Source: a virus
Lineage: Duplodnaviria; Heunggongvirae; Uroviricota; Caudoviricetes
Virus record (IMG/VR): IMGVR_UViG_647533160_000003
Direction: 5' to 3' (one strand)
DNA: 64,000 bases
Part shown: piece by piece, positions 15,025 to 64,000 of the stretch
Position numbering within the stretch: the stretch's first letter is position 1
How the letters are laid out: every line of letters starts with the position of its first letter
Program-made: the position numbers and the translations under genes
Notes under the pieces: generated by a model
What the model was told of the DNA's origin: nothing
Database searches by the model: none
The model's input: the letters and a program-made list of their open reading frames with translations, nothing else

Positions 15025-16236
15025 TCAAAAAAGTTTTATAAATTCATAATTCTGGTCAATTAAGGATTCAATACACACCATGCAAAAATCTACATCGTTA
15101 AAATCAGGTGTGTAATATTCATCCTCATAACATTCATTTAGACCTTCAATCAATTTTTCTTTAAAAACTCCCCACGTTTCAATATGAACCATTTCCATAT
15201 AAGGCGCATGTGTATGTACTTGCAATACATCCCAGGTGTCTATAACCTCGATCCGCGGCTTGCAATTAATTTTTTCTAAATATGCCCTCCCAGAATTGTA
15301 AATTTTCGACATTGATGCCCCAAAACCTGATGGTTGGTAATGAGTGTAAATGTCATAAATTTTTTGTCCTATTCTAGGGAGTTGAGAAGCATTGGATATT
15401 TGTGGCGAATGAAAGTATCGCTCTATGGAAGAAAACGCAGAAACATTAACTAGAGTAATCGTATATGGTGCTAAAGTTCTCTCGTTCAAATTTCTACATA
15501 AAATAGCAAACCCATGGCTATTAGTCTTTTCACCGTCTGAGGACATTTTTGCCATGCTGGCTTTAATAACATTCAATTTCGAATGTAAACGAGAAGTGGA
15601 AGTCGGTTGATTATACATTTCATCATCATACAAACATATATGAAACCCGCCAAGATGACGAAATGAGAACTTGAGTGCTTCTTCCGCAATAACTAATTTA
15701 TTAATATCTAAAGGAGTAAGTGATACGTTACCTTGTAAATCATAGCAAGGTTCTAAACATAGAAAGTTTTTCTTCTGCCACACGATCATATTAAAAATAA
15801 AGTGTCTAACCAAAGGTGGCCAGTCAGGTGATATAAGTACATTGGTAATATCTCCATCAGACAAGTATGACAAGTAACTTTTTAGTTCCGCAGCATATGC
15901 CACTAGCTCAGTTCCAGCTTCCCTTGTTGGTGTTGAAAAATTTTTTAACTCAATAAGAACTAAGGATTCATTCTCTGTTGAATAAGCAACGACATCAGGT
16001 CTTAATATCTCAGATTTTGTTGCTGAGATATTCTCATCATCTGTCATTAAATGTAACAATGTTATGTTCTTTAAACAAAACTGATAACTCTCCTTAATTT
16101 TTTTCTCTTCGGGTCTTTTCGGATTAAATTCATTTAATTTATCAATATTGATGATTGAATTATATAATCCATCTTGATCAGATAATTTGTCAATTATCCA
16201 ATTTTGCATTTCCTTTTCGCTTAAAAATATTGACAC
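15025..16236 (-). CDS. PD-(D/E)xK nuclease-like protein, second gene of candidate two-gene defense operon
   Basis: 403 aa; RPDVVAYSTENESLVLIELK is a PD-x14-ExK match; GTG start preceded by GGGAG RBS; very AT-rich. Confidence 0.6.
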   Translation of the reverse strand: MSIFLSEKEMQNWIIDKLSDQDGLYNSIINIDKLNEFNPKRPEEKKIKESYQFCLKNITLLHLMTDDENISATKSEILRPDVVAYSTENESLVLIELKNFSTPTREAGTELVAYAAELKSYLSYLSDGDITNVLISPDWPPLVRHFIFNMIVWQKKNFLCLEPCYDLQGNVSLTPLDINKLVIAEEALKFSFRHLGGFHICLYDDEMYNQPTSTSRLHSKLNVIKASMAKMSSDGEKTNSHGFAILCRNLNERTLAPYTITLVNVSAFSSIERYFHSPQISNASQLPRIGQKIYDIYTHYQPSGFGASMSKIYNSGRAYLEKINCKPRIEVIDTWDVLQVHTHAPYMEMVHIETWGVFKEKLIEGLNECYEDEYYTPDFNDVDFCMVCIESLIDQNYEFIKLF

Positions 16237-16262
16237 TAATTAGGCTCCCGTTAAACCAAAAA

Positions 16263-17084
16263 TTAAAAATCTTGCTTTACTTTATCCATGGTCAGAATTT
16301 TGCTAATAATTGAAGATTCAAATCCATCTAAACCTGAGAGAAAGTTAATTAGCTTTTGGATATGTTGTTCTTTAGGTATAAGTATATATTTTATATCATT
16401 GAACTCAAAATCAATGCCAAACTTTGAAAATTTTGAGCTAATTTTTGCTTTGTCATCAGAAGTGATAACACGCTCCAAACTCAGACTAGGCCATAAATCA
16501 CCAATAAAAGGAGCTGGCACATAACGCCACTCTTTCTCGTCTGCATATATATAATTCTCTATTGTTTTATTATCTTTTCGCTCTAGCTTGCCTCTGTAAT
16601 TTTTCATATAACGCAGTAAATTATATAGATCAGAATATTCTGCTTTCAATTTCTCAAACTCTATTCTGTTTTTGGTATCTAAATTTCCTCTAGCCTTCCA
16701 AAGCGGCACCAACTTATTTTTAATAAGTCGAATTCTGGCATTGTATTTAGAAAATATTTCACTACTCTTATTCATATATAGAACTGGGTGTAGACCTTTC
16801 TTTTCCGCCCAAGACTTAGTTAGCCCAAGACCGAATTCTCCATATTTTCCGCTATGATCTCTGATTTGTGATAGTTTTATGTCACAAAACGATACCATTG
16901 GTACTGCAAACCTCCTGCGTCCCCCGACTCCTCTTATTTCCTCGCGAGCAAGAAATGGTTTAAAATATTTCTCAGCCAATATGCTATAGAAAGCATCTTC
17001 GTTTTTTGTAAAATGAAACAACGTGGTTGGATGAAGACTATAAACAGATTCAACATTCGCATCAGGATTTTCAAGGATAGTCAT
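16263..17084 (-). CDS. hypothetical protein (LFHFT N-terminal motif), first gene of candidate two-gene defense operon
   Basis: About 273 aa from Met 17084 (AGGTG RBS 5 nt upstream; ORF open to 17129); 26-nt gap to downstream gene; AT-rich. Confidence 0.55.
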   Translation of the reverse strand: MTILENPDANVESVYSLHPTTLFHFTKNEDAFYSILAEKYFKPFLAREEIRGVGGRRRFAVPMVSFCDIKLSQIRDHSGKYGEFGLGLTKSWAEKKGLHPVLYMNKSSEIFSKYNARIRLIKNKLVPLWKARGNLDTKNRIEFEKLKAEYSDLYNLLRYMKNYRGKLERKDNKTIENYIYADEKEWRYVPAPFIGDLWPSLSLERVITSDDKAKISSKFSKFGIDFEFNDIKYILIPKEQHIQKLINFLSGLDGFESSIISKILTMDKVKQDF

Positions 17085-17373
17085 TTTACACCTTGTGGAA
17101 AGCCAGTTTAGTTCTGTAAATAGTATCACACGACAGGCGGCTATTCTTCTATCAATAAATGATAGGTAAGCACTTACTTTTTACGCACGTTAACTGTATA
17201 GTTCTTTCGGATACTCACTTGAAAGGACTCAATATGGGAAATAAATGTAAACATGCGCGTCGCGCATCTCGTCAGGTGCAGAAGTCAAATCCATACATTC
17301 ACGAGCACTACCACCTCAGCTCTTTCACTAACCGCTACACGTTCCCCAGCGAAGCGCATAACGAGGCAAAGCA

Positions 17374-17786: not shown

Positions 17787-18411
17787 NNNNNNNNNNNNNN
17801 NNNNNNNNNNNNNNNNNNNNNNNNNNNNNNNNNNNNNNNNNNNNNNNNNNNNNNNNNNNNNNNNNNNNNNNNNNNNNNNNNNNNNNNNNNNNNNNNNNNN
17901 NNNNNNNNNNNNNNNNNNNNNNNNNNNNNNNNNNNNNNNNNNNNNNNNNNNNNNNNNNNNNNNNNNNNNNNNNNNNNNNNNNNNNNNNNNNNNNNNNNNN
18001 NNNNNNNNNNNNNNNNNNNNNNNNNNNNNNNNNNNNNNNNNNNNNNNNNNNNNNNNNNNNNNNNNNNNNNNNNNNNNNNNNNNNNNNNNNNNNNNNNNNN
18101 NNNNNNNNNNNNNNNNNNNNNNNNNNNNNNNNNNNNNNNNNNNNNNNNNNNNNNNNNNNNNNNNNNNNNNNNNNNNNNNNNNNNNNNNNNNNNNNNNNNN
18201 NNNNNNNNNNNNNNNNNNNNNNNNNNNNNNNNNNNNNNNNNNNNNNNNNNNNNNNNNNNNNNNNNNNNNNNNNNNNNNNNNNNNNNNNNNNNNNNNNNNN
18301 NNNNNNNNNNNNNNNNNNNNNNNNNNNNNNNNNNNNNNNNNNNNNNNNNNNNNNNNNNNNNNNNNNNNNNNNNNNNNNNNNNNNNNNNNNNNNNNNNNNN
18401 NNNNNNNNNNN
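17787..18411. other. assembly gap (625 N)
   Basis: Uninterrupted run of n. Confidence 0.99.
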
Positions 18412-28100: not shown

Positions 28101-28635
28101 GGCTGAGATTAACGTGCTCATGACACGGATGGCGGCTGAAATGGGCTTAGGTGATGAACTAATCCGCCCCAGCATTGGTATTAAGCCGAAAATCATGATC
28201 ATTCTGGACAATGCGAACGGCAATGATGCTCGAACCGGTTACTTTATGGAGAACGGATACGACGATTTTAAGGCCAAGCTATTGACGGCTGGAGATTTAC
28301 GCATGGGCGATCTCTATGTCACAGGCGTTTGCAAGAAGGTTAAAGACAAAGAAAAAGACTACACCAAAGACGAGATCGGCCAGTTCACCGACTTTATGCG
28401 TGAAGAGATCAATCTGGTGCGTCCGACCTATGTGCTGACGTGTGGCAGCCGGGCAACGTCGCTCTTCAACAACAAGATCAAACCATCCGACCTGGTTGGA
28501 CGCAAAGAGTATCTGCCGGAGCTGGATGTGACTGTTTTCTACGGATTTAACCCGAATATTTTGTACTTTCGCCCAGAGGAAGGCGAAAAGCTGGAAGCAA
28601 TTCTGGCAGAGGTAGCGGAGACTATTAGCAAATGA
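25117..28635 (+). CDS. dnaE: DNA polymerase III alpha subunit (DnaE-like, PHP domain)
   Basis: 1172 aa; N-terminal PHP region; core motifs GLIKLDVLGLATLD and FNKSHSVAYS. Confidence 0.85.
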   Translation: MKALMVRTDFSLGESALKAENAVKIAREAGYTAVISADSMNIASVIPLQRAAGDDMAVICGVKLNIVDDPTYEHRAKLAKESMGCMESLERGRNYSFTALIKNEQGYRDICELMTAANTREQFYFVPRLSLEQLVSTYAKGNIILLTADIGSVYQRNDFAKIISSLITAGGKNNFYSVVYPHPTPFYDQINVRAMKVASALKIEPVAFYPAYYESIDDADIKDIAHMVTNNIKIDQPHRLRIPHQRDNAVNGRRHLLEALKAFSVRMDVPVTAAMASTTQDTIIDACTWRWHELPPALPKMADDEPATLMKLAVAGLRKRLTTKEFGYTPPASENRVYVERLKYEMDTLTRLGFCGYFLMVRDLMNHSRETGIPVGPGRGSSAGSLVAWCIGITNVDPIRHGLLFERFINPERLDLPDADLDFSQARRHEVIEYLNERYGEDYVAGIPNFTYLGAASALRDTARIYGVESADMAVSKELKNVEDDSLPLEELREQLASLDKYATKYPDAFNAACKLQSLMRGYGRHAAGMIVAGVPLTERTPVERRGDARCIAFDKRYCEAMGLIKLDVLGLATLDLLDSAKRYIKENTGEDINLDAISLEDRKVLDGFAAGYTQGVFQLESGPMRKLLKDLGGGIEPMSFKTVVATTALFRPGPIQSGMLDDYVSVAKGFMTPESLHPVLDELTAETNGVILYQEQTMNATRLLAGFTMAEADGVRKAIGKKDMEKMKSMGEKFIVQAQAGWIDVELEDGTTQRIHRAEHFKCEDGTLKTVEEALEFGAKLPINAVRVTASHPGLSEMKAKEIWTAFEKNGAYQFNKSHSVAYSLISYQSMWLKTHYPAEFFAAALTILGEDKHQGLVKDALTYGIRVLPPDVNVSSNRIEIRTLEDGSQVLYAPFSAVKGCSENGCQAIMRAREKVGGKFESLAQFEEAVEKRACNSRVRESLQKVGAFASIEPGSLPATDPERLRDQAELMGNLVIDAVKASRPFEMNPKRSAEINVLMTRMAAEMGLGDELIRPSIGIKPKIMIILDNANGNDARTGYFMENGYDDFKAKLLTAGDLRMGDLYVTGVCKKVKDKEKDYTKDEIGQFTDFMREEINLVRPTYVLTCGSRATSLFNNKIKPSDLVGRKEYLPELDVTVFYGFNPNILYFRPEEGEKLEAILAEVAETISK

Positions 28636-28773
28636 ATAAAGAAAACACCATAAAGGAGGCCAAAGAGTTTATGAAAGTAAACAAGATTGGCGATGTGAGA
28701 TAGTACAGGCTGAAACGCCAGACCAGAGTCACTCTATCCAACATCTTGGGTAAGAAAGTCGCATAAATAAAAA

Positions 28774-28797
28774 ACCCGCCAATCGCGGGTTTCATTT
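28774..28797. terminator. bidirectional intrinsic terminator
   Basis: ACCCGC-CAATC-GCGGGT hairpin flanked by A-run and T-rich tract. Confidence 0.6.
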
Positions 28798-28853
28798 ATT
28801 AATTGCAGATTCCGTGTAGTGATAGTTATTAATTATCTTCCGCCAATAAGACA

Positions 28854-29444
28854 TCAACTTAACTCTTTTATCTGCTTCCAAGTTTCAATACCTATTTCAG
28901 TTAAAGCATTAAAGTAATCGTTTTTTATTTCCGCATACTTGGAATCATCAAAGTTCAGATTACCATTATTTTTTTCTTCGACGCATTCCATGAAAAATTT
29001 AAGTGCATCATTACATTTATTAAAAATAGTTTGCTGATGAGTTTTTTTAGGATTAAGCAATACAATTATCTGATTGCATTGAATCATTACAATTTTCGCC
29101 AGTTCGTCCCCAGCTTGTTGATATGTCGGGATTGCCTGCGGATTTATCGGTCGTTTTAATAAGTTGTAATTCATATCGAGATTCGCATAAAACTCACTAC
29201 TTCTTGACCTTAGCTCTTGAAGCCAACGAAGTCTTTCTGCGGTAATTATAGTTGCTTTTAATTTTTTATCTTCAATAGCAGCAGCAGAATTAATTTGTTC
29301 GTTTGTGCCTCGATATAACAAATATGCACCAATAGCAGCGCCTGCAATAGCTGATATTGAAGATATTACAGCAATCCAAATAGCAGAATGGTCAGGTTTC
29401 GTGTTCTCTGCTATTTGCTTTAATAAATTATAAATATCAAACAT
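28854..29444 (-). CDS. single-pass membrane protein, function unknown (AT-rich moron)
   Basis: 196 aa; one TM helix IWIAVISSISAIAGAAIGAYLLY; minus strand, very AT-rich. Confidence 0.55.
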   Translation of the reverse strand: MFDIYNLLKQIAENTKPDHSAIWIAVISSISAIAGAAIGAYLLYRGTNEQINSAAAIEDKKLKATIITAERLRWLQELRSRSSEFYANLDMNYNLLKRPINPQAIPTYQQAGDELAKIVMIQCNQIIVLLNPKKTHQQTIFNKCNDALKFFMECVEEKNNGNLNFDDSKYAEIKNDYFNALTEIGIETWKQIKELS

Positions 29445-29688
29445 GAGGATAATATTTCCTTTTAATTTGAATAATTAATGATAAATGCTGTGCGGAAACA
29501 TGAAGATTCTATCCTTTTCAAAACCCATATTTCTTTCGATTAAATCCACGAACACAATAGGAGAAACTCCTGCAATTAACAAGCCCTAAGAAATGGTTGT
29601 TCGAGCAGATAGCATAACGGTCTATCTTGGATTAGCGTTAATTTAAGCTCTATAATCAATACATCATGATAAGTGAGAATCTATCAAA

Positions 29689-30120
29689 ATGAGCACCAAT
29701 ATATACGAAAAAATCATGTCCGATCTCGAGTTTGACCGAGACAATCTGGAAGAAGTCTGGCGTAGACAACCCCGCCTGTTGATGGAATATGGCTCAAAAC
29801 TCGCCCATGCAGAAAGAAGTGTCGCAGAAGCAAAACTTAACCTTGAAGCTGTTGAAGCAAAGCTATACGACACAGAGCGTAAGAACTTGAGTATGAATGG
29901 CATTAAGTTCAACGAATCTGTACTGGACGCTAAGGTTAAAACAAACCCACAGTATCTGTCTAAACGGCAGAAGTTGGATGAAGCACGGCACATCGCAGAC
30001 ATATACAAACATGCTGTCGCCGCCTTTTCGCATCGCCGAGACATGATCGTTCAGGCGTCAAAGATGGCCATCGTTGAATTAGAGCGATTAGGCTCTGAAC
30101 GCTTTATTACTCCCCGTTGA
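29689..30120 (+). CDS. hypothetical protein
   Basis: 143-aa charged ORF. Confidence 0.5.
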   Translation: MSTNIYEKIMSDLEFDRDNLEEVWRRQPRLLMEYGSKLAHAERSVAEAKLNLEAVEAKLYDTERKNLSMNGIKFNESVLDAKVKTNPQYLSKRQKLDEARHIADIYKHAVAAFSHRRDMIVQASKMAIVELERLGSERFITPR

Positions 30121-32540: not shown

Positions 32541-33614
32541 ATGGCAAAAGGAAAATCCGCACTGGCACTTGCTCTGAAAAAGAAAATCGGTAGCAACGAC
32601 GAAATACAGAAAGTAACTCATTGGATTGACACAGGCTTTCCTCCGTTAAACAAAGCGATTTCCGGTCGTTACGATGGCGGTTTCCCATGTGGTCGTATCG
32701 TAGAAGTATTCGGGCCGCCAAGCGCGGGGAAAACCTTTTTGGCAACGGCAGCAATGATCTCCGCTCAGAAACAAGATGGTCTGGCGGTATTCCTCGATCA
32801 TGAGAACAGTTTTGACGTTGGCCTGGCTGTCGCCAATGGTCTGAACGCAGATGAAGATGACGGCCAGTGGGTATACAAGCAGCCAGATACCTTCGAAGAC
32901 TCTGTGGAGTTGATCGGCACAATACTTAAATTGGTACGTGATGAAGAGCTTATCCCTGAATCAGCACCTATCTGTATCGTGGCGGACTCACTTGCGTCTA
33001 TGGTTCCGAACTCCAAAGCCGAGAAGTTCGAAAAGATGGCTGAAGGCACTGCCAAAGACAAAGATCAGCTAAACATGAATGACAATACGGCGCTGGCTCG
33101 TGCGACGAGTGCGAACTTCCCCACTCTGGCTTTGTGGGCACGCAAATACAACGCCTGCATCATCTTCTTGAATCAGGTTCGCACAAAAATCGGTGTAATG
33201 TTTGGCGACCCTACGACGTCACCAGGTGGCGATTCGCCGAAGTTTTACGCTTCTGTGCGCATCCGTCTCGGTGCATCGGTGATGAAGGATGGTAAAGAGA
33301 AGATCGGTCAGGACGTAGGCGCAGAGTGCATCAAAAACAAAGTTGCACCACCTTATGGCAAGTGCACCTGGAAATTCTACTTCGATCCTACTCGTGGCCT
33401 CGACGTTATCGAATCGCTCGTCGAGTACATGCTGGATGAAGGATACCTGCCAAAGAACGCAAGCGGTCGAGTAGAAATTGGCGACAAGAAATACACCAAA
33501 TCACAGATCGTCGAGATGTATCGGGAGAAGCCACTAGCTGAAATAATTGCGGCTTTGCAGGCAATCGACGACCGGAGAGCAAAAGACACCCCCACCGAGT
33601 CAGTAGAAGAGTAA
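32541..33614 (+). CDS. recA: RecA-family recombinase
   Basis: Walker A GPPSAGKT in RecA-like core; 357 aa. Confidence 0.8.
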   Translation: MAKGKSALALALKKKIGSNDEIQKVTHWIDTGFPPLNKAISGRYDGGFPCGRIVEVFGPPSAGKTFLATAAMISAQKQDGLAVFLDHENSFDVGLAVANGLNADEDDGQWVYKQPDTFEDSVELIGTILKLVRDEELIPESAPICIVADSLASMVPNSKAEKFEKMAEGTAKDKDQLNMNDNTALARATSANFPTLALWARKYNACIIFLNQVRTKIGVMFGDPTTSPGGDSPKFYASVRIRLGASVMKDGKEKIGQDVGAECIKNKVAPPYGKCTWKFYFDPTRGLDVIESLVEYMLDEGYLPKNASGRVEIGDKKYTKSQIVEMYREKPLAEIIAALQAIDDRRAKDTPTESVEE

Positions 33615-60036: not shown

Positions 60037-60890
60037 ATCTGATTTATACAACAAAGCCTCAAAGTGGTCTGGGATGCTTCTTTCGCCACGCCATCCACAT
60101 TCTGTATTCTGTCCTTATGTTTCCTTCAGAGGTTACTTTATTATACTTTGTGGTCGGTGGAGAGGCTAAAACGCTTTCGAGCGTTTCACCAGCATCGAAT
60201 CGCGCGTACAGCTTGTAATCGGCGGCATTCGGGTTTGTCGGCTCACTTTTACCATGACTCATTTTTATCATCCTTTGCGATAAGGTCTTAACCCTGCCAG
60301 ACACCGGCTGCTGACGTCATAAACGAATTTTACGTCAAGTGGTAAAGCACCTTAGGGAATCGACACTTCAGAGATTTCAAATCTTAATACATAGTGAAGA
60401 TCTTACTCAATACTCGCCTGAACGGAATTATTCTTCATCACCGACAGGGGCTGCTGTGCAGTCGAAGATATTGCGCAAAAAGGACTATGGCGCTGGACTG
60501 CTGTTCGTTAACAGGAAGTGTTGATAGATTGTCGGCAGGAAGGGCTGGTAGATTAGCGGATATCTGATAGAGAACAAATACGCCGCACTATGAAGCTGGT
60601 AGCGTCAAAAAACATTGAAACTAAGGAGTCGAGCACTTCGAAAGCATTGTGTAAAGCCACGATACGAATAGATAAAAAAAGGGGAACACACTGAGACCTA
60701 AAACAGCGCACGGAGAACTATATCTTAATAGGGAAAAATAAAATTTATGAAGGGTATGCGTTGAAAACTCTTGCTATTATGTGTGTCGCATTGTTTTTTA
60801 TATTAAATGCATAAAATTTCATGTGGCATTAGAAACCTTGTACTGTTATACTTAACTATTAACAACTATTTTATTGCTATTTATTCAATA

Positions 60891-61400
60891 ATGGATACAG
60901 CGATGAACAATGTGTCTCTTTTGGAAAAGATACTTAGCTATCAAAAAAATAAAGATCAGACTTATCCTGTTCAGGAACATTTGCTAATGCTGTTATGTGT
61001 CCGGGTTAGCAATAAAATTCAAGATGTTATATCAGATGGATTTGGCAAGTACAGAATAAACAACACTATGTTTATGGTATTGTCTTTATTATATATGACA
61101 GATGATTATTGCTTATCTCCTTCTGAAATTAGTAAGGTGTTGCAGGTTACTAAACCAAACATAACGCGAATCACAGATATCTTAGAAAAGAAAGGGGTTA
61201 TTAAACGCGTTGATAATAAACACGATCGACGAGGCAAAAACTTATGCTTAACTCCGGATGGTGTTTTGTTTACGCAAAAAATGATACGTGTGAAAAATAT
61301 AATTATGAAGAAAATTTGGGAAGAGCTATCTGATGATGAACTGAAGATATTCGAGAGTGTAAGCAAAAAAATACTGAATAGTATCGATTATAAATCATGA
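60891..61400 (+). CDS. MarR-family transcriptional regulator
   Basis: Winged-helix region LSPSEISKVLQVTKPNITRITDILEKKGVIKRVDNKHDRRGKNLCLT; start at Met 60891 (ORF open from 60807); AT-rich upstream region. Confidence 0.6.
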   Translation: MDTAMNNVSLLEKILSYQKNKDQTYPVQEHLLMLLCVRVSNKIQDVISDGFGKYRINNTMFMVLSLLYMTDDYCLSPSEISKVLQVTKPNITRITDILEKKGVIKRVDNKHDRRGKNLCLTPDGVLFTQKMIRVKNIIMKKIWEELSDDELKIFESVSKKILNSIDYKS

Positions 61401-61930
61401 ACTCCGTCAAATGATTATTTGAAAACACTTGCACACCATAATGTTATTAATACGATGTACTATCAATTTCAAAGTTATCTAAGGTGAAGTCGCTTATTAA
61501 GCGATGAGTACATGCAATATATGTACTGATAGAGCATCCATTATCTAAAAGTTGCTATATAGATATGAGGTGGGCGTTATTTCTCTAAGTTATGATTCAT
61601 GAATCAGATTATTTTTTTTCGTCAATCAATGAACCATAGGAAATGAAAGAAATTTCATTCTCCATGGTTTATCTCATGTGTTGAAATGCCCCTCTCTTAT
61701 TATATGAAAAAACATTATCAACAACATTGTATTTAATTCGAGATAACGATTTAACAACATTTATTTGACAGGTATTGAATCTCGATTAATTCATGTGTTG
61801 TTACACTTTTTTGTTTGTGATAGCATCCGCGCCCCTGTTGGGGGCATAGACACTCCAATCCAAATATTTCTGGAAGCAAATGCTTTTACTCGCAGTTGCA
61901 AATGTTCGTTAACTCGTTCATCAAGAAATT

Positions 61931-64000
61931 ATGTCAATGTTACGTTTAAATAAAACCTATAAACAACAACGTTTCCGCTATTCTGCCTTGGCTAGATGTA
62001 TGGCATGGGCAAACATCTCTGTTCAGGTTCTTTTCCCATTAGCTGTCACTTTTACACCGACAATGACAGCGCGGGCGCATAATGCGGCTCTGCCTCGTCT
62101 AAGTGCGGAAAATACTGCTGTTGCTACTGACAATAATGCAGAAAAAAATATCGCGTCGGTTGCCGCGAATGCCGGTAAATTTTTAAGCAGTCAGCCGGAT
62201 AGCGATGCGACTCGCAACTTTGTTACCGGAATGGCTACTGCTAAGGCCACCCAGGAAATCCAGGAGTGGCTCGGGAAATATGGCACCGCGCGCGTCAAAC
62301 TGAATGCCGATAAAGATTTCTCGCTGAAGGATTCTTCGCTGGAAATGCTTTATCCGATATATGACACGCCGACAAATATGCTGTTCACTCAGGGGGCAAT
62401 ACATCGCACTGACGATCGCACTCAGTCAAATATTGGTTTCGGCTGGCGCCATTTCTCAGGTAATGACTGGATGGCGGGGGTGAATACCTTCATTGACCAT
62501 GATTTATCCCGTAGTCATACCCGCATTGGTATTGGTACGGAATACTGGCGTGATTATCTTAAACTGAGCGCCAATGGTTATATCCGGGCTTCTGGCTGGA
62601 AAAAATCGCCGGATGTTGAGGATTATCAGGAACGTCCGGCGAATGGCTGGGATATCCGTGCTGAGGGCTATTTACCGGCCTGGCCACAGCTTGGCGCAAG
62701 CCTGATGTATGAACAGTATTACGGCGATGAGGTAGGACTGTTTGGTAAAGATAAACGCCAGAAAAACCCACATGCTATTTCAGCTGGGGTGAACTACACG
62801 CCTGTACCTCTTCTGACCCTGAGCGCAGAGCATAAGCAGGGCAAGAGCGGTCAGAATGACACCCGTTTGGGCCTGGAAATTAACTACCGGATTGGCGAAC
62901 CTCTGGAAAAACAACTCGATACAGACAGCATTCGCGAGCGCCGTGTGCTGACAGGCAGCCGCTATGACCTGGTTGAGCGTAATAACAACATCGTTCTTGA
63001 ATACCGCAAATCTGAAGTGATCCGTATTGCTCTGCCTGAGCGTATTGAAGGTAAGAGCGGGCAGACGGTATCCCTGGGGCTTGTGGTCAGTAAAGCAACC
63101 CACGGTCTAAAAAATGTGCAGTGGGAGGCGTCGTCTTTGCTGGCTGCGGGCGGTAAAATTACCGGGCAGGGCAACCAGTGGCAAGTGACGCTCCCGGCTT
63201 ATCAGGCAGGCAAAGACAATTATTACGCGATCTCTGCGGTAGCATATGATAACAAAGGCAATGCCTCGAAGCGTGTACAGACACAGGTGGTCATTACCGG
63301 TGCGAGTATGAGTGCCGATCGTTCTGCGCTAACGCTTGACGGACAGGACAGTATCCAGATGCTTGCTAATGGTAGCTCGCAAAAAACGCTGGCGCTGTCT
63401 CTGCGCGATGCCGAGGGACAACCTATCACGGGTATGAAAGATCAGATCAAGACTGAGCTGACGTTTAAACCTGCCGGAAACATCGTAACGCGGGCTCTTA
63501 GGTCTGCTAAATCACAGACACAGCCAACATTGGGTGAGTTCACCGAAACTGAAGCAGGGGTGTATCAGTCAGTCTTCACTACTGGTACGCAATCAGGTGA
63601 AGCAACCATTACTGTGAGCATTGATGGTATGAGCAAAACCGTTACTGCCGATTTGCGTGCCACAATGATGGATGTGACAAAGTCCACTCTGAGTGTGAGT
63701 GAGCTTTCAGATGATGTGGCTGCTGATGGTCAGCAATCCTACACGCTGACGCTTACAGCGGTAGATACCGATGGCAACCCGGTGGAGGGAGAAGCCAGCC
63801 GTTTGCGCTTTGTTCCACAGGACAACAGCGGTGTTACCATTGGCACTATTTCGGAGATAAAGCCGGGGGTCTATAGCGCCACGGTTTCTTCGACCCGTGC
63901 CGGAAACGTTGTTGTGCGTGCCTTCAGCGAGCAGTATCAGCTGGGCACGTTACAACAAACGCTGAAGTTTGTTGCCGGGCCGCTTGATGCAGCACATTCG
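61931..64000 (+). CDS. fdeC: inverse-autotransporter adhesin FdeC/EaeH (intimin/invasin family), 5' partial
   Basis: Translation from 61931 (MSMLRLNKTYKQQRFRYSALARCMAWANISVQVLFPLAVTF...) matches E. coli FdeC as recalled; beta-barrel then Big-like repeats; runs off window end. Confidence 0.8.
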   Translation, partial: MSMLRLNKTYKQQRFRYSALARCMAWANISVQVLFPLAVTFTPTMTARAHNAALPRLSAENTAVATDNNAEKNIASVAANAGKFLSSQPDSDATRNFVTGMATAKATQEIQEWLGKYGTARVKLNADKDFSLKDSSLEMLYPIYDTPTNMLFTQGAIHRTDDRTQSNIGFGWRHFSGNDWMAGVNTFIDHDLSRSHTRIGIGTEYWRDYLKLSANGYIRASGWKKSPDVEDYQERPANGWDIRAEGYLPAWPQLGASLMYEQYYGDEVGLFGKDKRQKNPHAISAGVNYTPVPLLTLSAEHKQGKSGQNDTRLGLEINYRIGEPLEKQLDTDSIRERRVLTGSRYDLVERNNNIVLEYRKSEVIRIALPERIEGKSGQTVSLGLVVSKATHGLKNVQWEASSLLAAGGKITGQGNQWQVTLPAYQAGKDNYYAISAVAYDNKGNASKRVQTQVVITGASMSADRSALTLDGQDSIQMLANGSSQKTLALSLRDAEGQPITGMKDQIKTELTFKPAGNIVTRALRSAKSQTQPTLGEFTETEAGVYQSVFTTGTQSGEATITVSIDGMSKTVTADLRATMMDVTKSTLSVSELSDDVAADGQQSYTLTLTAVDTDGNPVEGEASRLRFVPQDNSGVTIGTISEIKPGVYSATVSSTRAGNVVVRAFSEQYQLGTLQQTLKFVAGPLDAAHS

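Follow-up and report, generated by a model that had tools for sequence, protein, structure and literature searches.

Among the closest described counterparts of the gene discussed here are small inner-membrane exclusion proteins encoded by phage morons, such as Imm of T4, gp15 of HK97, SieA of P22 and the lactococcal Sie2009. The gene in question lies on the minus strand at 28854-29444 in a 64,000-nucleotide stretch of viral DNA (IMG/VR record IMGVR_UViG_647533160_000003, Caudoviricetes; "the window" below means this whole stretch), which we assign to an Escherichia coli phage-plasmid of the SSU5/pHCM2 type, because the flanks of the gene match the SSU5-group phage-plasmids PhiR41_1, CMS-2020a and SSU5. 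Salmonella Typhi, Shigella, E. coli and Klebsiella commonly carry elements of this type, which tend to be dismissed as cryptic. Distribution and anatomy give good support to reading the gene as an accessory cassette that stands alone (a moron) in an exchangeable slot. Membrane-protein morons in variable slots are a known kind of genomic feature; the protein family itself is uncharacterised. For its function we favour, with a probability of roughly 0.45, superinfection exclusion or abortive infection, that is, protection against other phages or mobile DNA.

The sequence-only reading from which this study started had described a minus-strand open reading frame (ORF) of 196 amino acids (aa), AT-rich, opposed to a plus-strand backbone and encoding a membrane protein with a single N-terminal transmembrane (TM) helix and a charged soluble domain. 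All of this could be recovered. The ORF begins with ATG and occupies the same coordinates; its GC content is 0.33, compared with a window mean of 0.449 (standard deviation 0.045), and in a window-wide scan only 2.8% of 591-nucleotide (nt) windows are as GC-poor; every neighbouring gene lies on the plus strand (a CobS-like AAA_5 ATPase, a DnaE of 1172 aa, a 143-aa ORF, a gp32-like protein, a 5'-3' exonuclease and a RecA-like protein). Hydropathy gives a single peak, at residues 21-39 (Kyte-Doolittle maximum 1.99 over 19 residues), and none elsewhere; the remainder, about 150 residues outside the membrane, is soluble and of mixed charge (19 K+R, 20 D+E, isoelectric point 5.9). In the E. coli plasmids that carry the identical sequence the product is the RefSeq hypothetical protein WP_000459728.1, and the allele of pHCM2, WP_000459729.1, is 84% identical to it. 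The protein is matched over its full length (E 6e-139) by phrog_24982 of PHROGs, whose function label is "unknown". In the literature searched we found no mention of these two RefSeq identifiers, of phrog_24982 or of the guessed pHCM2 locus tags, and the published work on pHCM2 and SSU5 does not discuss the gene.

The distribution of the gene is that of accessory cargo. The stretch 28640-29690 is 99.9-100% identical to its counterpart in 11 E. coli IncFIB plasmids (pGD31-F25, for example) of about 72-113 kb, mostly about 110 kb, and 86% identical to its counterpart in pHCM2 of S. Typhi CT18. The 3' end of dnaE occurs in 816 plasmids of PLSDB, the gene itself in 46 (32 from Salmonella, 11 from E. 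coli and one each from Klebsiella, Citrobacter and Enterobacter), and it is not in pMT1 of Yersinia pestis. Among 5,426 complete E. coli genomes it is present in 16, plasmid-borne every time, on plasmids that again span about 72-113 kb and are mostly near 110 kb; by tblastn it is in none of 50,697 deposited phage records, and IMG/VR holds eight loci with the gene, six of them in the window's own type of phage-plasmid. The site is empty in CMS-2020a and in PhiR41_1, whose flanks are about 94-95% identical and in which, in a four-way alignment, 125 nt separate the dnaE stop codon from the 143-aa gene. The presence/absence comparison thus finds the position not occupied in all relatives, as a universal gene with a structural role would be. 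The earlier suggestion of a single-gene moron is upheld by the 46 carriers against 816 plasmids, by the empty PhiR41_1 site, by the other cargo found in the same slot and by the low GC content.

This other cargo is diverse. SSU5, pMT1, Escherichia albertii and Enterobacter have in the same slot a minus-strand ORF of 74-83 aa together with a "DNA-binding protein" of 185-192 aa, to which Enterobacter adds a 214-aa ORF; in E. coli pYLPD4a only a 192-aa "DNA-binding protein" is annotated, and in Klebsiella pneumoniae pKP301b there are two lipoprotein-like ORFs. None of this alternative cargo was found anywhere in the 64-kb window, and direct comparison of the usual occupant, SSU5_054, with the 196-aa protein revealed no similarity. 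Neither member of the usual pair has a Pfam or NCBIfam match. As a side observation, the order of this pair in SSU5 (locus L002, 4305-5172), in which the small gene precedes a partner that is helix-turn-helix-like at its C-terminus, recalls HicAB-type toxin-antitoxin systems, which we offer as a lead only.

The limits of the variable cassette, from about 28798 to about 29645, were taken from the four-way alignment. Its left edge is the 3' spacer that separates the terminator from the stop codon (28798-28853), from which SSU5 diverges completely onward. Its right part is an AT-rich 5' region of about 200 nt (29445-29645, minus strand), which is 90.6% identical to pHCM2 and was inherited with the gene. 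The backbone restarts at 29646-29688 (plus strand), where the alignment with PhiR41_1 and SSU5 resumes; a perfect TATAAT -10 element at 29651-29656, ahead of the conserved 143-aa gene (29689-30120), is common to all aligned elements. On the other side, the hairpin AAACCCGC-CAATC-GCGGGTTT at 28772-28792, with a stem of 8-9 bp, an A-run upstream and a T-run downstream, is rated terminator-like in either orientation and lies 61 nt beyond the stop codon of the gene (terminator-like sites number five in the region, with 1.0 expected). The sequence-only reading had placed a bidirectional terminator beside the gene, and such a hairpin is indeed there; it is not the property of the cassette. Because SSU5 and pHCM2 share it as the end of their dnaE/DUF7740 unit, we regard it as a backbone element outside the inserted cassette, which is predicted to end transcription of the minus-strand gene as well. 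In both pHCM2 and SSU5 an intact DUF7740 gene (PF24886) follows dnaE and ends at this shared hairpin. In the window only a remnant survives, at 28636-28770 (plus strand): about 310 nt have been lost from the interior of the gene, which leaves the last 38 codons and an in-frame stop, and tblastn aligns residues 104-141 of SSU5_053 to 28650-28763 at 87% identity. The ORF list also has, at 28625-28795 on the minus strand, a 56-aa entry that overlaps with this remnant and that we regard as probably spurious.

Within the slot, the coding sequence is under constraint. The ratio of nonsynonymous to synonymous divergence (dN/dS) from the pHCM2 allele is 0.20, indicative of purifying selection, and together with the family alignments described below, this leads us to conclude that 28854-29444 is a real, constrained and functional gene. 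Divergence from pHCM2 is nevertheless a mosaic: dS is about 0.11 over codons 1-100 and 1.16 over codons 101-196, and for the flanking genes it is 0.76 (dnaE) and 2.1 (the 143-aa gene). The high identity of the upstream intergenic region fits the low dS of codons 1-100. This mosaic of dS across the gene and its flanks therefore suggests a recombination breakpoint inside the gene, with a recently exchanged tract ending there.

The region 29445-29645 presumably holds the promoter of the gene, whose expression we infer. A scan for the sigma-70 consensus upstream of the gene returned no site of at least 9/12; the best candidate, picked by eye, reaches 8/12 (TTGTTA, 17 nt, TATTGT, 29582 to 29554 on the minus strand), and a weak Shine-Dalgarno sequence, AAGGA, stands 13 nt ahead of the ATG. 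Inside the 17-nt spacer of this candidate lies the palindrome AGGAGTTTCTCCT (29559-29571), which differs in pHCM2 by one loop change and could be a putative operator. An Rfam scan of the cassette gave only a sub-threshold match to the Trp leader, caused by the terminator hairpin.

The protein family is small. Searching 5.8 billion clusters by word index brought up 45 relatives, and an exhaustive hidden Markov model search of 1.84 billion representatives produced 254 at E<=1e-3, from Vibrio, Pseudidiomarina, Aeromonas, Proteus, Trabulsiella, Enterobacter, beta-proteobacteria, Verrucomicrobia and Bacteroidetes-like metagenome sequences. The 25 closer homologues share 22 invariant columns, including the block T-A-E-R-L-R-W-L-Q-(D/E)-x-R, which contains R-x2-W-x4-R. 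Over 76 diverse members R71 remains invariant, and W74, R79, L130 (in an L-N-P turn) and W189 are conserved in at least 90%; residues 1-18 form a short amphipathic tail with a conserved LLxQIAENT. In one proteobacterial metagenome-assembled genome (locus L024, 1085-2021) the family gene is broken up into two ORFs that overlap, either by a frameshift or as a pseudogene. Searches against described families were uninformative: at E<=1 Pfam returned for the 196-aa protein only the sub-threshold YfbR-like (E 0.0045) and DUF5820 families, and for the 76 members scattered weak matches with no consistent family; the protein has no match in NCBIfam and none in PADLOC (0 families at E<=1), a profile search of the PDB by sequence gave nothing better than E = 8, and a fold search of BFVD nothing at E<=0.001.

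An AlphaFold2 model computed with the family alignment (mean predicted local distance difference test score, pLDDT, 82.9) consists of a short N-terminal helix (residues 2-14), a 79-residue helix (19-97) that includes the TM segment, and three more helices. In the model these pack as an up-down four-helix bundle, residues about 58-195, which would carry the invariant ERLRWLQ(D/E)xR. The TM helix, residues about 21-43, bears small residues (G, A or S) at positions 25, 28/29, 31/32, 35/36 and 40, with conservation of 0.67-0.95. Small-residue stripes in TM helices favour tight helix-helix packing, and because this face suits such packing, the protein probably forms oligomers.

The side of the membrane on which the bundle lies can be predicted from two independent kinds of sequence evidence. 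Among 59 short-form members the mean number of K+R is 0.95 in the 15 residues before the TM helix and 3.0 in the 15 residues after it, and the count is higher on the C-terminal side in 53 members and lower in one. Furthermore, a hydrophobic, signal-peptide-like start is seen in 10 of the 14 long forms of our broad alignment (A3) and in homologue P0030; five of these N-extended homologues, all non-Bacteroidetes-like, have two to four cysteines in the stub of about 60 residues before the TM helix. Variants with several TM segments have an even number of them ahead of the conserved domain. Because of this charge bias and of the N-extended homologues with signal-peptide-like starts, we predict that the four-helix bundle is cytoplasmic, with the C-terminus inside. 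Pfam recognises no domain in the N-terminal extensions, with the exception of one DUF4062 fusion; this fusion would argue for the opposite topology, but it is a single case on a 1.3-kb contig and we treated it as unreliable. The topology proposed earlier, one N-terminal TM helix and a soluble domain, is therefore retained with the added detail that the soluble domain is predicted to face the cytoplasm, a location that would fit a mechanism acting at the inner face of the membrane, or abortive infection, better than a periplasmic blocker of entry.

The genomic company of the homologues is mostly that of mobile-element cargo, or resembles defence islands. In Vibrio fluvialis the family gene lies in an integrative and conjugative element (ICE) with a TrwC relaxase and a type IV coupling protein (T4CP), about 8 kb from ToxN, and in Pseudidiomarina in an island downstream of glmS. 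In a first Aeromonas-type prophage the NinB region is followed by the family gene and then by HipA_2/DUF3037 and an AAA_15/AAA_21 pair, and in a second by the family gene and a cluster of Dcm, HATPase_c_3 and Response_reg_2 genes. A soil contig has GmrSD_N and HEPN immediately upstream and SNF2 and DUF1156 downstream, and in an integrative element a DUF5906 primase and a fragment of MmeI are found near the family gene. Elsewhere the family gene is directly upstream of a DpnII-MboI-like protein, or directly adjoins an EcoRI-type methyltransferase with a GmrSD_N restriction endonuclease, a RelA_SpoT/PDC-S33 protein or a full-length PDC-S06 protein; in an enterobacterial prophage it stands at the far end, past the tail fibre and UmuDC. 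PADLOC, run on 136 neighbouring ORFs, also reported PD-T4-6, PDC-M49A and AriA-like matches. A few contexts resemble ordinary chromosome. In about 6-8 of about 17 independent contexts a known or candidate defence gene is no more than about three genes away, and we consider the association with defence suggestive rather than statistical.

An all-against-all BLASTP of the neighbours at 18 loci revealed no conserved partner gene; since no neighbour is conserved across independent contexts, the gene therefore appears to work by itself or together with host factors. In the Vibrio, Aeromonas-type and soil contigs the upstream ORF has about 206-217 aa; the resemblance is one of length, and these ORFs are unrelated except in two Aeromonas-type prophages. 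In these two related prophages (loci L025, 2797-4130, and L036, 8282-9591) a homologous protein of 205-217 aa with two TM segments (40% identity) precedes the family gene. The different defence-type cargo that follows the family gene in them marks a further exchange hotspot beside the NinB region.

We favour a protective role on indirect grounds: the homologues lie in mobile-element cargo and beside defence genes, and the window itself has an AbiGi-domain gene in another AT-rich island of the minus strand. The 196-aa protein would be made from its own weak promoter, probably while the element persists as a plasmid, and would sit in the inner membrane with a periplasmic tail of about 18 residues, one TM helix and the cytoplasmic bundle. 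The small-residue face of the TM helix would bring the proteins together in oligomers; an infection cue might be sensed by the conserved Arg/Trp surface of the bundle, or by the short tail; and the outcome could be either a block to DNA entry at the inner membrane or permeabilisation of the membrane by clustered TM helices, hence abortive infection. Expression, oligomerisation, any anti-phage activity and its trigger are the parts of this mechanism that we infer. What weighs against it is that the protein matches no known defence or exclusion family in Pfam, PADLOC, PHROGs or NCBIfam; for superinfection exclusion in particular there is no annotated match to Imm, SieA/SieB, Sie2009, gp15 or Cor/Llp in these four collections. 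DefenseFinder is reported to find no system in pHCM2-like elements (bioRxiv 10.1101/2025.09.12.675607). A bolder version of the same idea, which we put forward only tentatively, is that the gene is the founding member of an undescribed, partner-less family of single-gene defence against phages or mobile elements and that the slot next to dnaE is a hotspot of protective cargo: the protein would then be a sentinel of the inner membrane, whose R-x2-W-x4-R bundle or periplasmic tail detects infection, after which glycine-zipper-like TM helices assemble and either stop DNA from entering or make the membrane collapse.

Several other explanations of the same observations have to be weighed. One may imagine that the gene replaces the DNA-binding module that is usual in the slot and that its product is a membrane-tethered sensor or regulator of the element's own life cycle, linking the state of the envelope to lysogeny, induction or replication, for example by sequestering or releasing a regulator. 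We consider this unlikely: the protein has no DNA-binding, kinase or other output domain, its homologues are found in chromosomes and unrelated elements that have no partner in common for it to regulate, and the gene is carried by only about 6% of the related plasmids, with close relatives lacking it. The lack of an output domain also bears on the proposal of a ligand binder of the NarX/PilJ/4HB_MCP type in the periplasm, with an N-terminal TM anchor and the C-terminus outside. Here the likeness resides in the fold, a four-helix bundle following TM1 as in the 4HB_MCP and NarX-PilJ-NIT sensors, and it is a generic one, given that de novo designed bundles score equally well; at E<=0.1 the profiles for PilJ, 4HB_MCP and NIT match none of the 76 members, a second TM segment is absent and the protein ends with the bundle, while the charge bias (53/59) and the N-extended homologues put this bundle in the cytoplasm. 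Such a binder seems to us very improbable.

Two explanations remain. A counter-defence or host-modulating factor, which would help the element to establish itself (lysogenic conversion without any anti-phage role), would agree with the accessory distribution and with the association with mobile elements, and phage-plasmids are reported to carry many anti-defence genes (10.1101/2025.09.12.675607). Yet the chromosomal homologues directly adjoin restriction-modification systems and candidate defence genes and lie outside the early and leading regions of mobile elements, and the protein does not resemble known anti-defence proteins, which makes this a rather unlikely role. The gene might also serve addiction or competition, as a toxin-like membrane protein with either a stabilising effect on the element or a harmful one on cells or rival plasmids (post-segregational killing, entry exclusion). 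The glycine-zipper-like small-residue face of its TM helix recalls those of small membrane toxins and pinholins; the gene is borne by plasmids, ICEs and prophages; and the usual occupant of the slot, a small ORF with a DNA-binding protein of about 190 aa, is arranged like a toxin-antitoxin pair, again as a lead only. Against these points, no antitoxin-like partner is conserved alongside and no antisense RNA family was detected in the Rfam scan of the cassette, the 196 aa with their large conserved soluble domain are unlike type I toxins, and a single gene is stably kept in many genomes. We hold addiction or competition to be quite unlikely.

Some other features of the window deserve mention. 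A second AT-rich island, at 15025-17129 on the minus strand, encodes a 288-aa protein with an AbiGi domain (PF10899, E 4.8e-25) and, after it, a 403-aa ORF without Pfam match, and looks like an AbiG-like abortive-infection pair. Nearby, a masked run of 625 N (17787-18411) in an AT-rich region cuts a large minus-strand ORF that extends to 19241 and whose readable part has no Pfam match. A third AT-rich island, at 60481-62082, contains a MarR-family regulator of 197 aa (60807-61400, plus strand; PF01047, E 2.8e-12). Finally, the RecA-like gene at 32541-33614 encodes 357 aa here and about 780 aa in PhiR41_1, and in pYLPD4a the annotation is LAGLIDADG homing endonuclease, which suggests that an intein or a homing endonuclease is inserted in this gene in some relatives and not in the element of the window.

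If the gene does confer exclusion or abortive infection, elements of the SSU5/pHCM2 type would have a selectable function, a compact and partner-less membrane family would be added to the known defences, and the slot downstream of dnaE would be flagged for further cargo; otherwise it is another conserved hypothetical moron. Three known types of protein were considered and set aside. LemA has a similar layout (an N-terminal TM segment and a four-helix bundle in about 190 aa), but it is neither one of the two Pfam matches of the query at E<=1 nor among the 25 most often matched of the 91 families that the 76 members hit at E<=0.1. A pore effector of the SLATT type would have two TM segments instead of one, and SLATT_fungal is matched by only two of the 76 members, at E about 0.01 (0.011). 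A holin or pinholin does not fit a protein with one TM helix whose neighbours are replication genes and not a lysis cassette.

How, then, does the 196-aa protein compare with systems already described? From the bundles of the sensors Tar/Tsr, TorS, NarX/NarQ and PcaY it is separated by sequence identities of only 3-10% and by a predicted location on the opposite side of the membrane. The single-gene effectors catalogued in PADLOC and DefenseFinder (Abi, PD-T4/PD-T7 and SLATT-type proteins) resemble it as stand-alone genes found in defence-island or mobile-cargo neighbourhoods, and as proteins in which a TM segment suited to oligomerisation is joined to a soluble domain that could sense; it differs from them in having no match to a PADLOC model and no generator of a nucleotide signal nearby. 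Compared with the exclusion proteins Imm, gp15, SieA and Sie2009, it is larger and mostly bundle, predicted to be cytoplasmic and not periplasmic, and without similarity in sequence or profile. With these morons the locus has in common a single accessory gene of deviant base composition, with a terminator-like hairpin of the backbone after it and a membrane-anchored product, in an element whose close relatives do without it.
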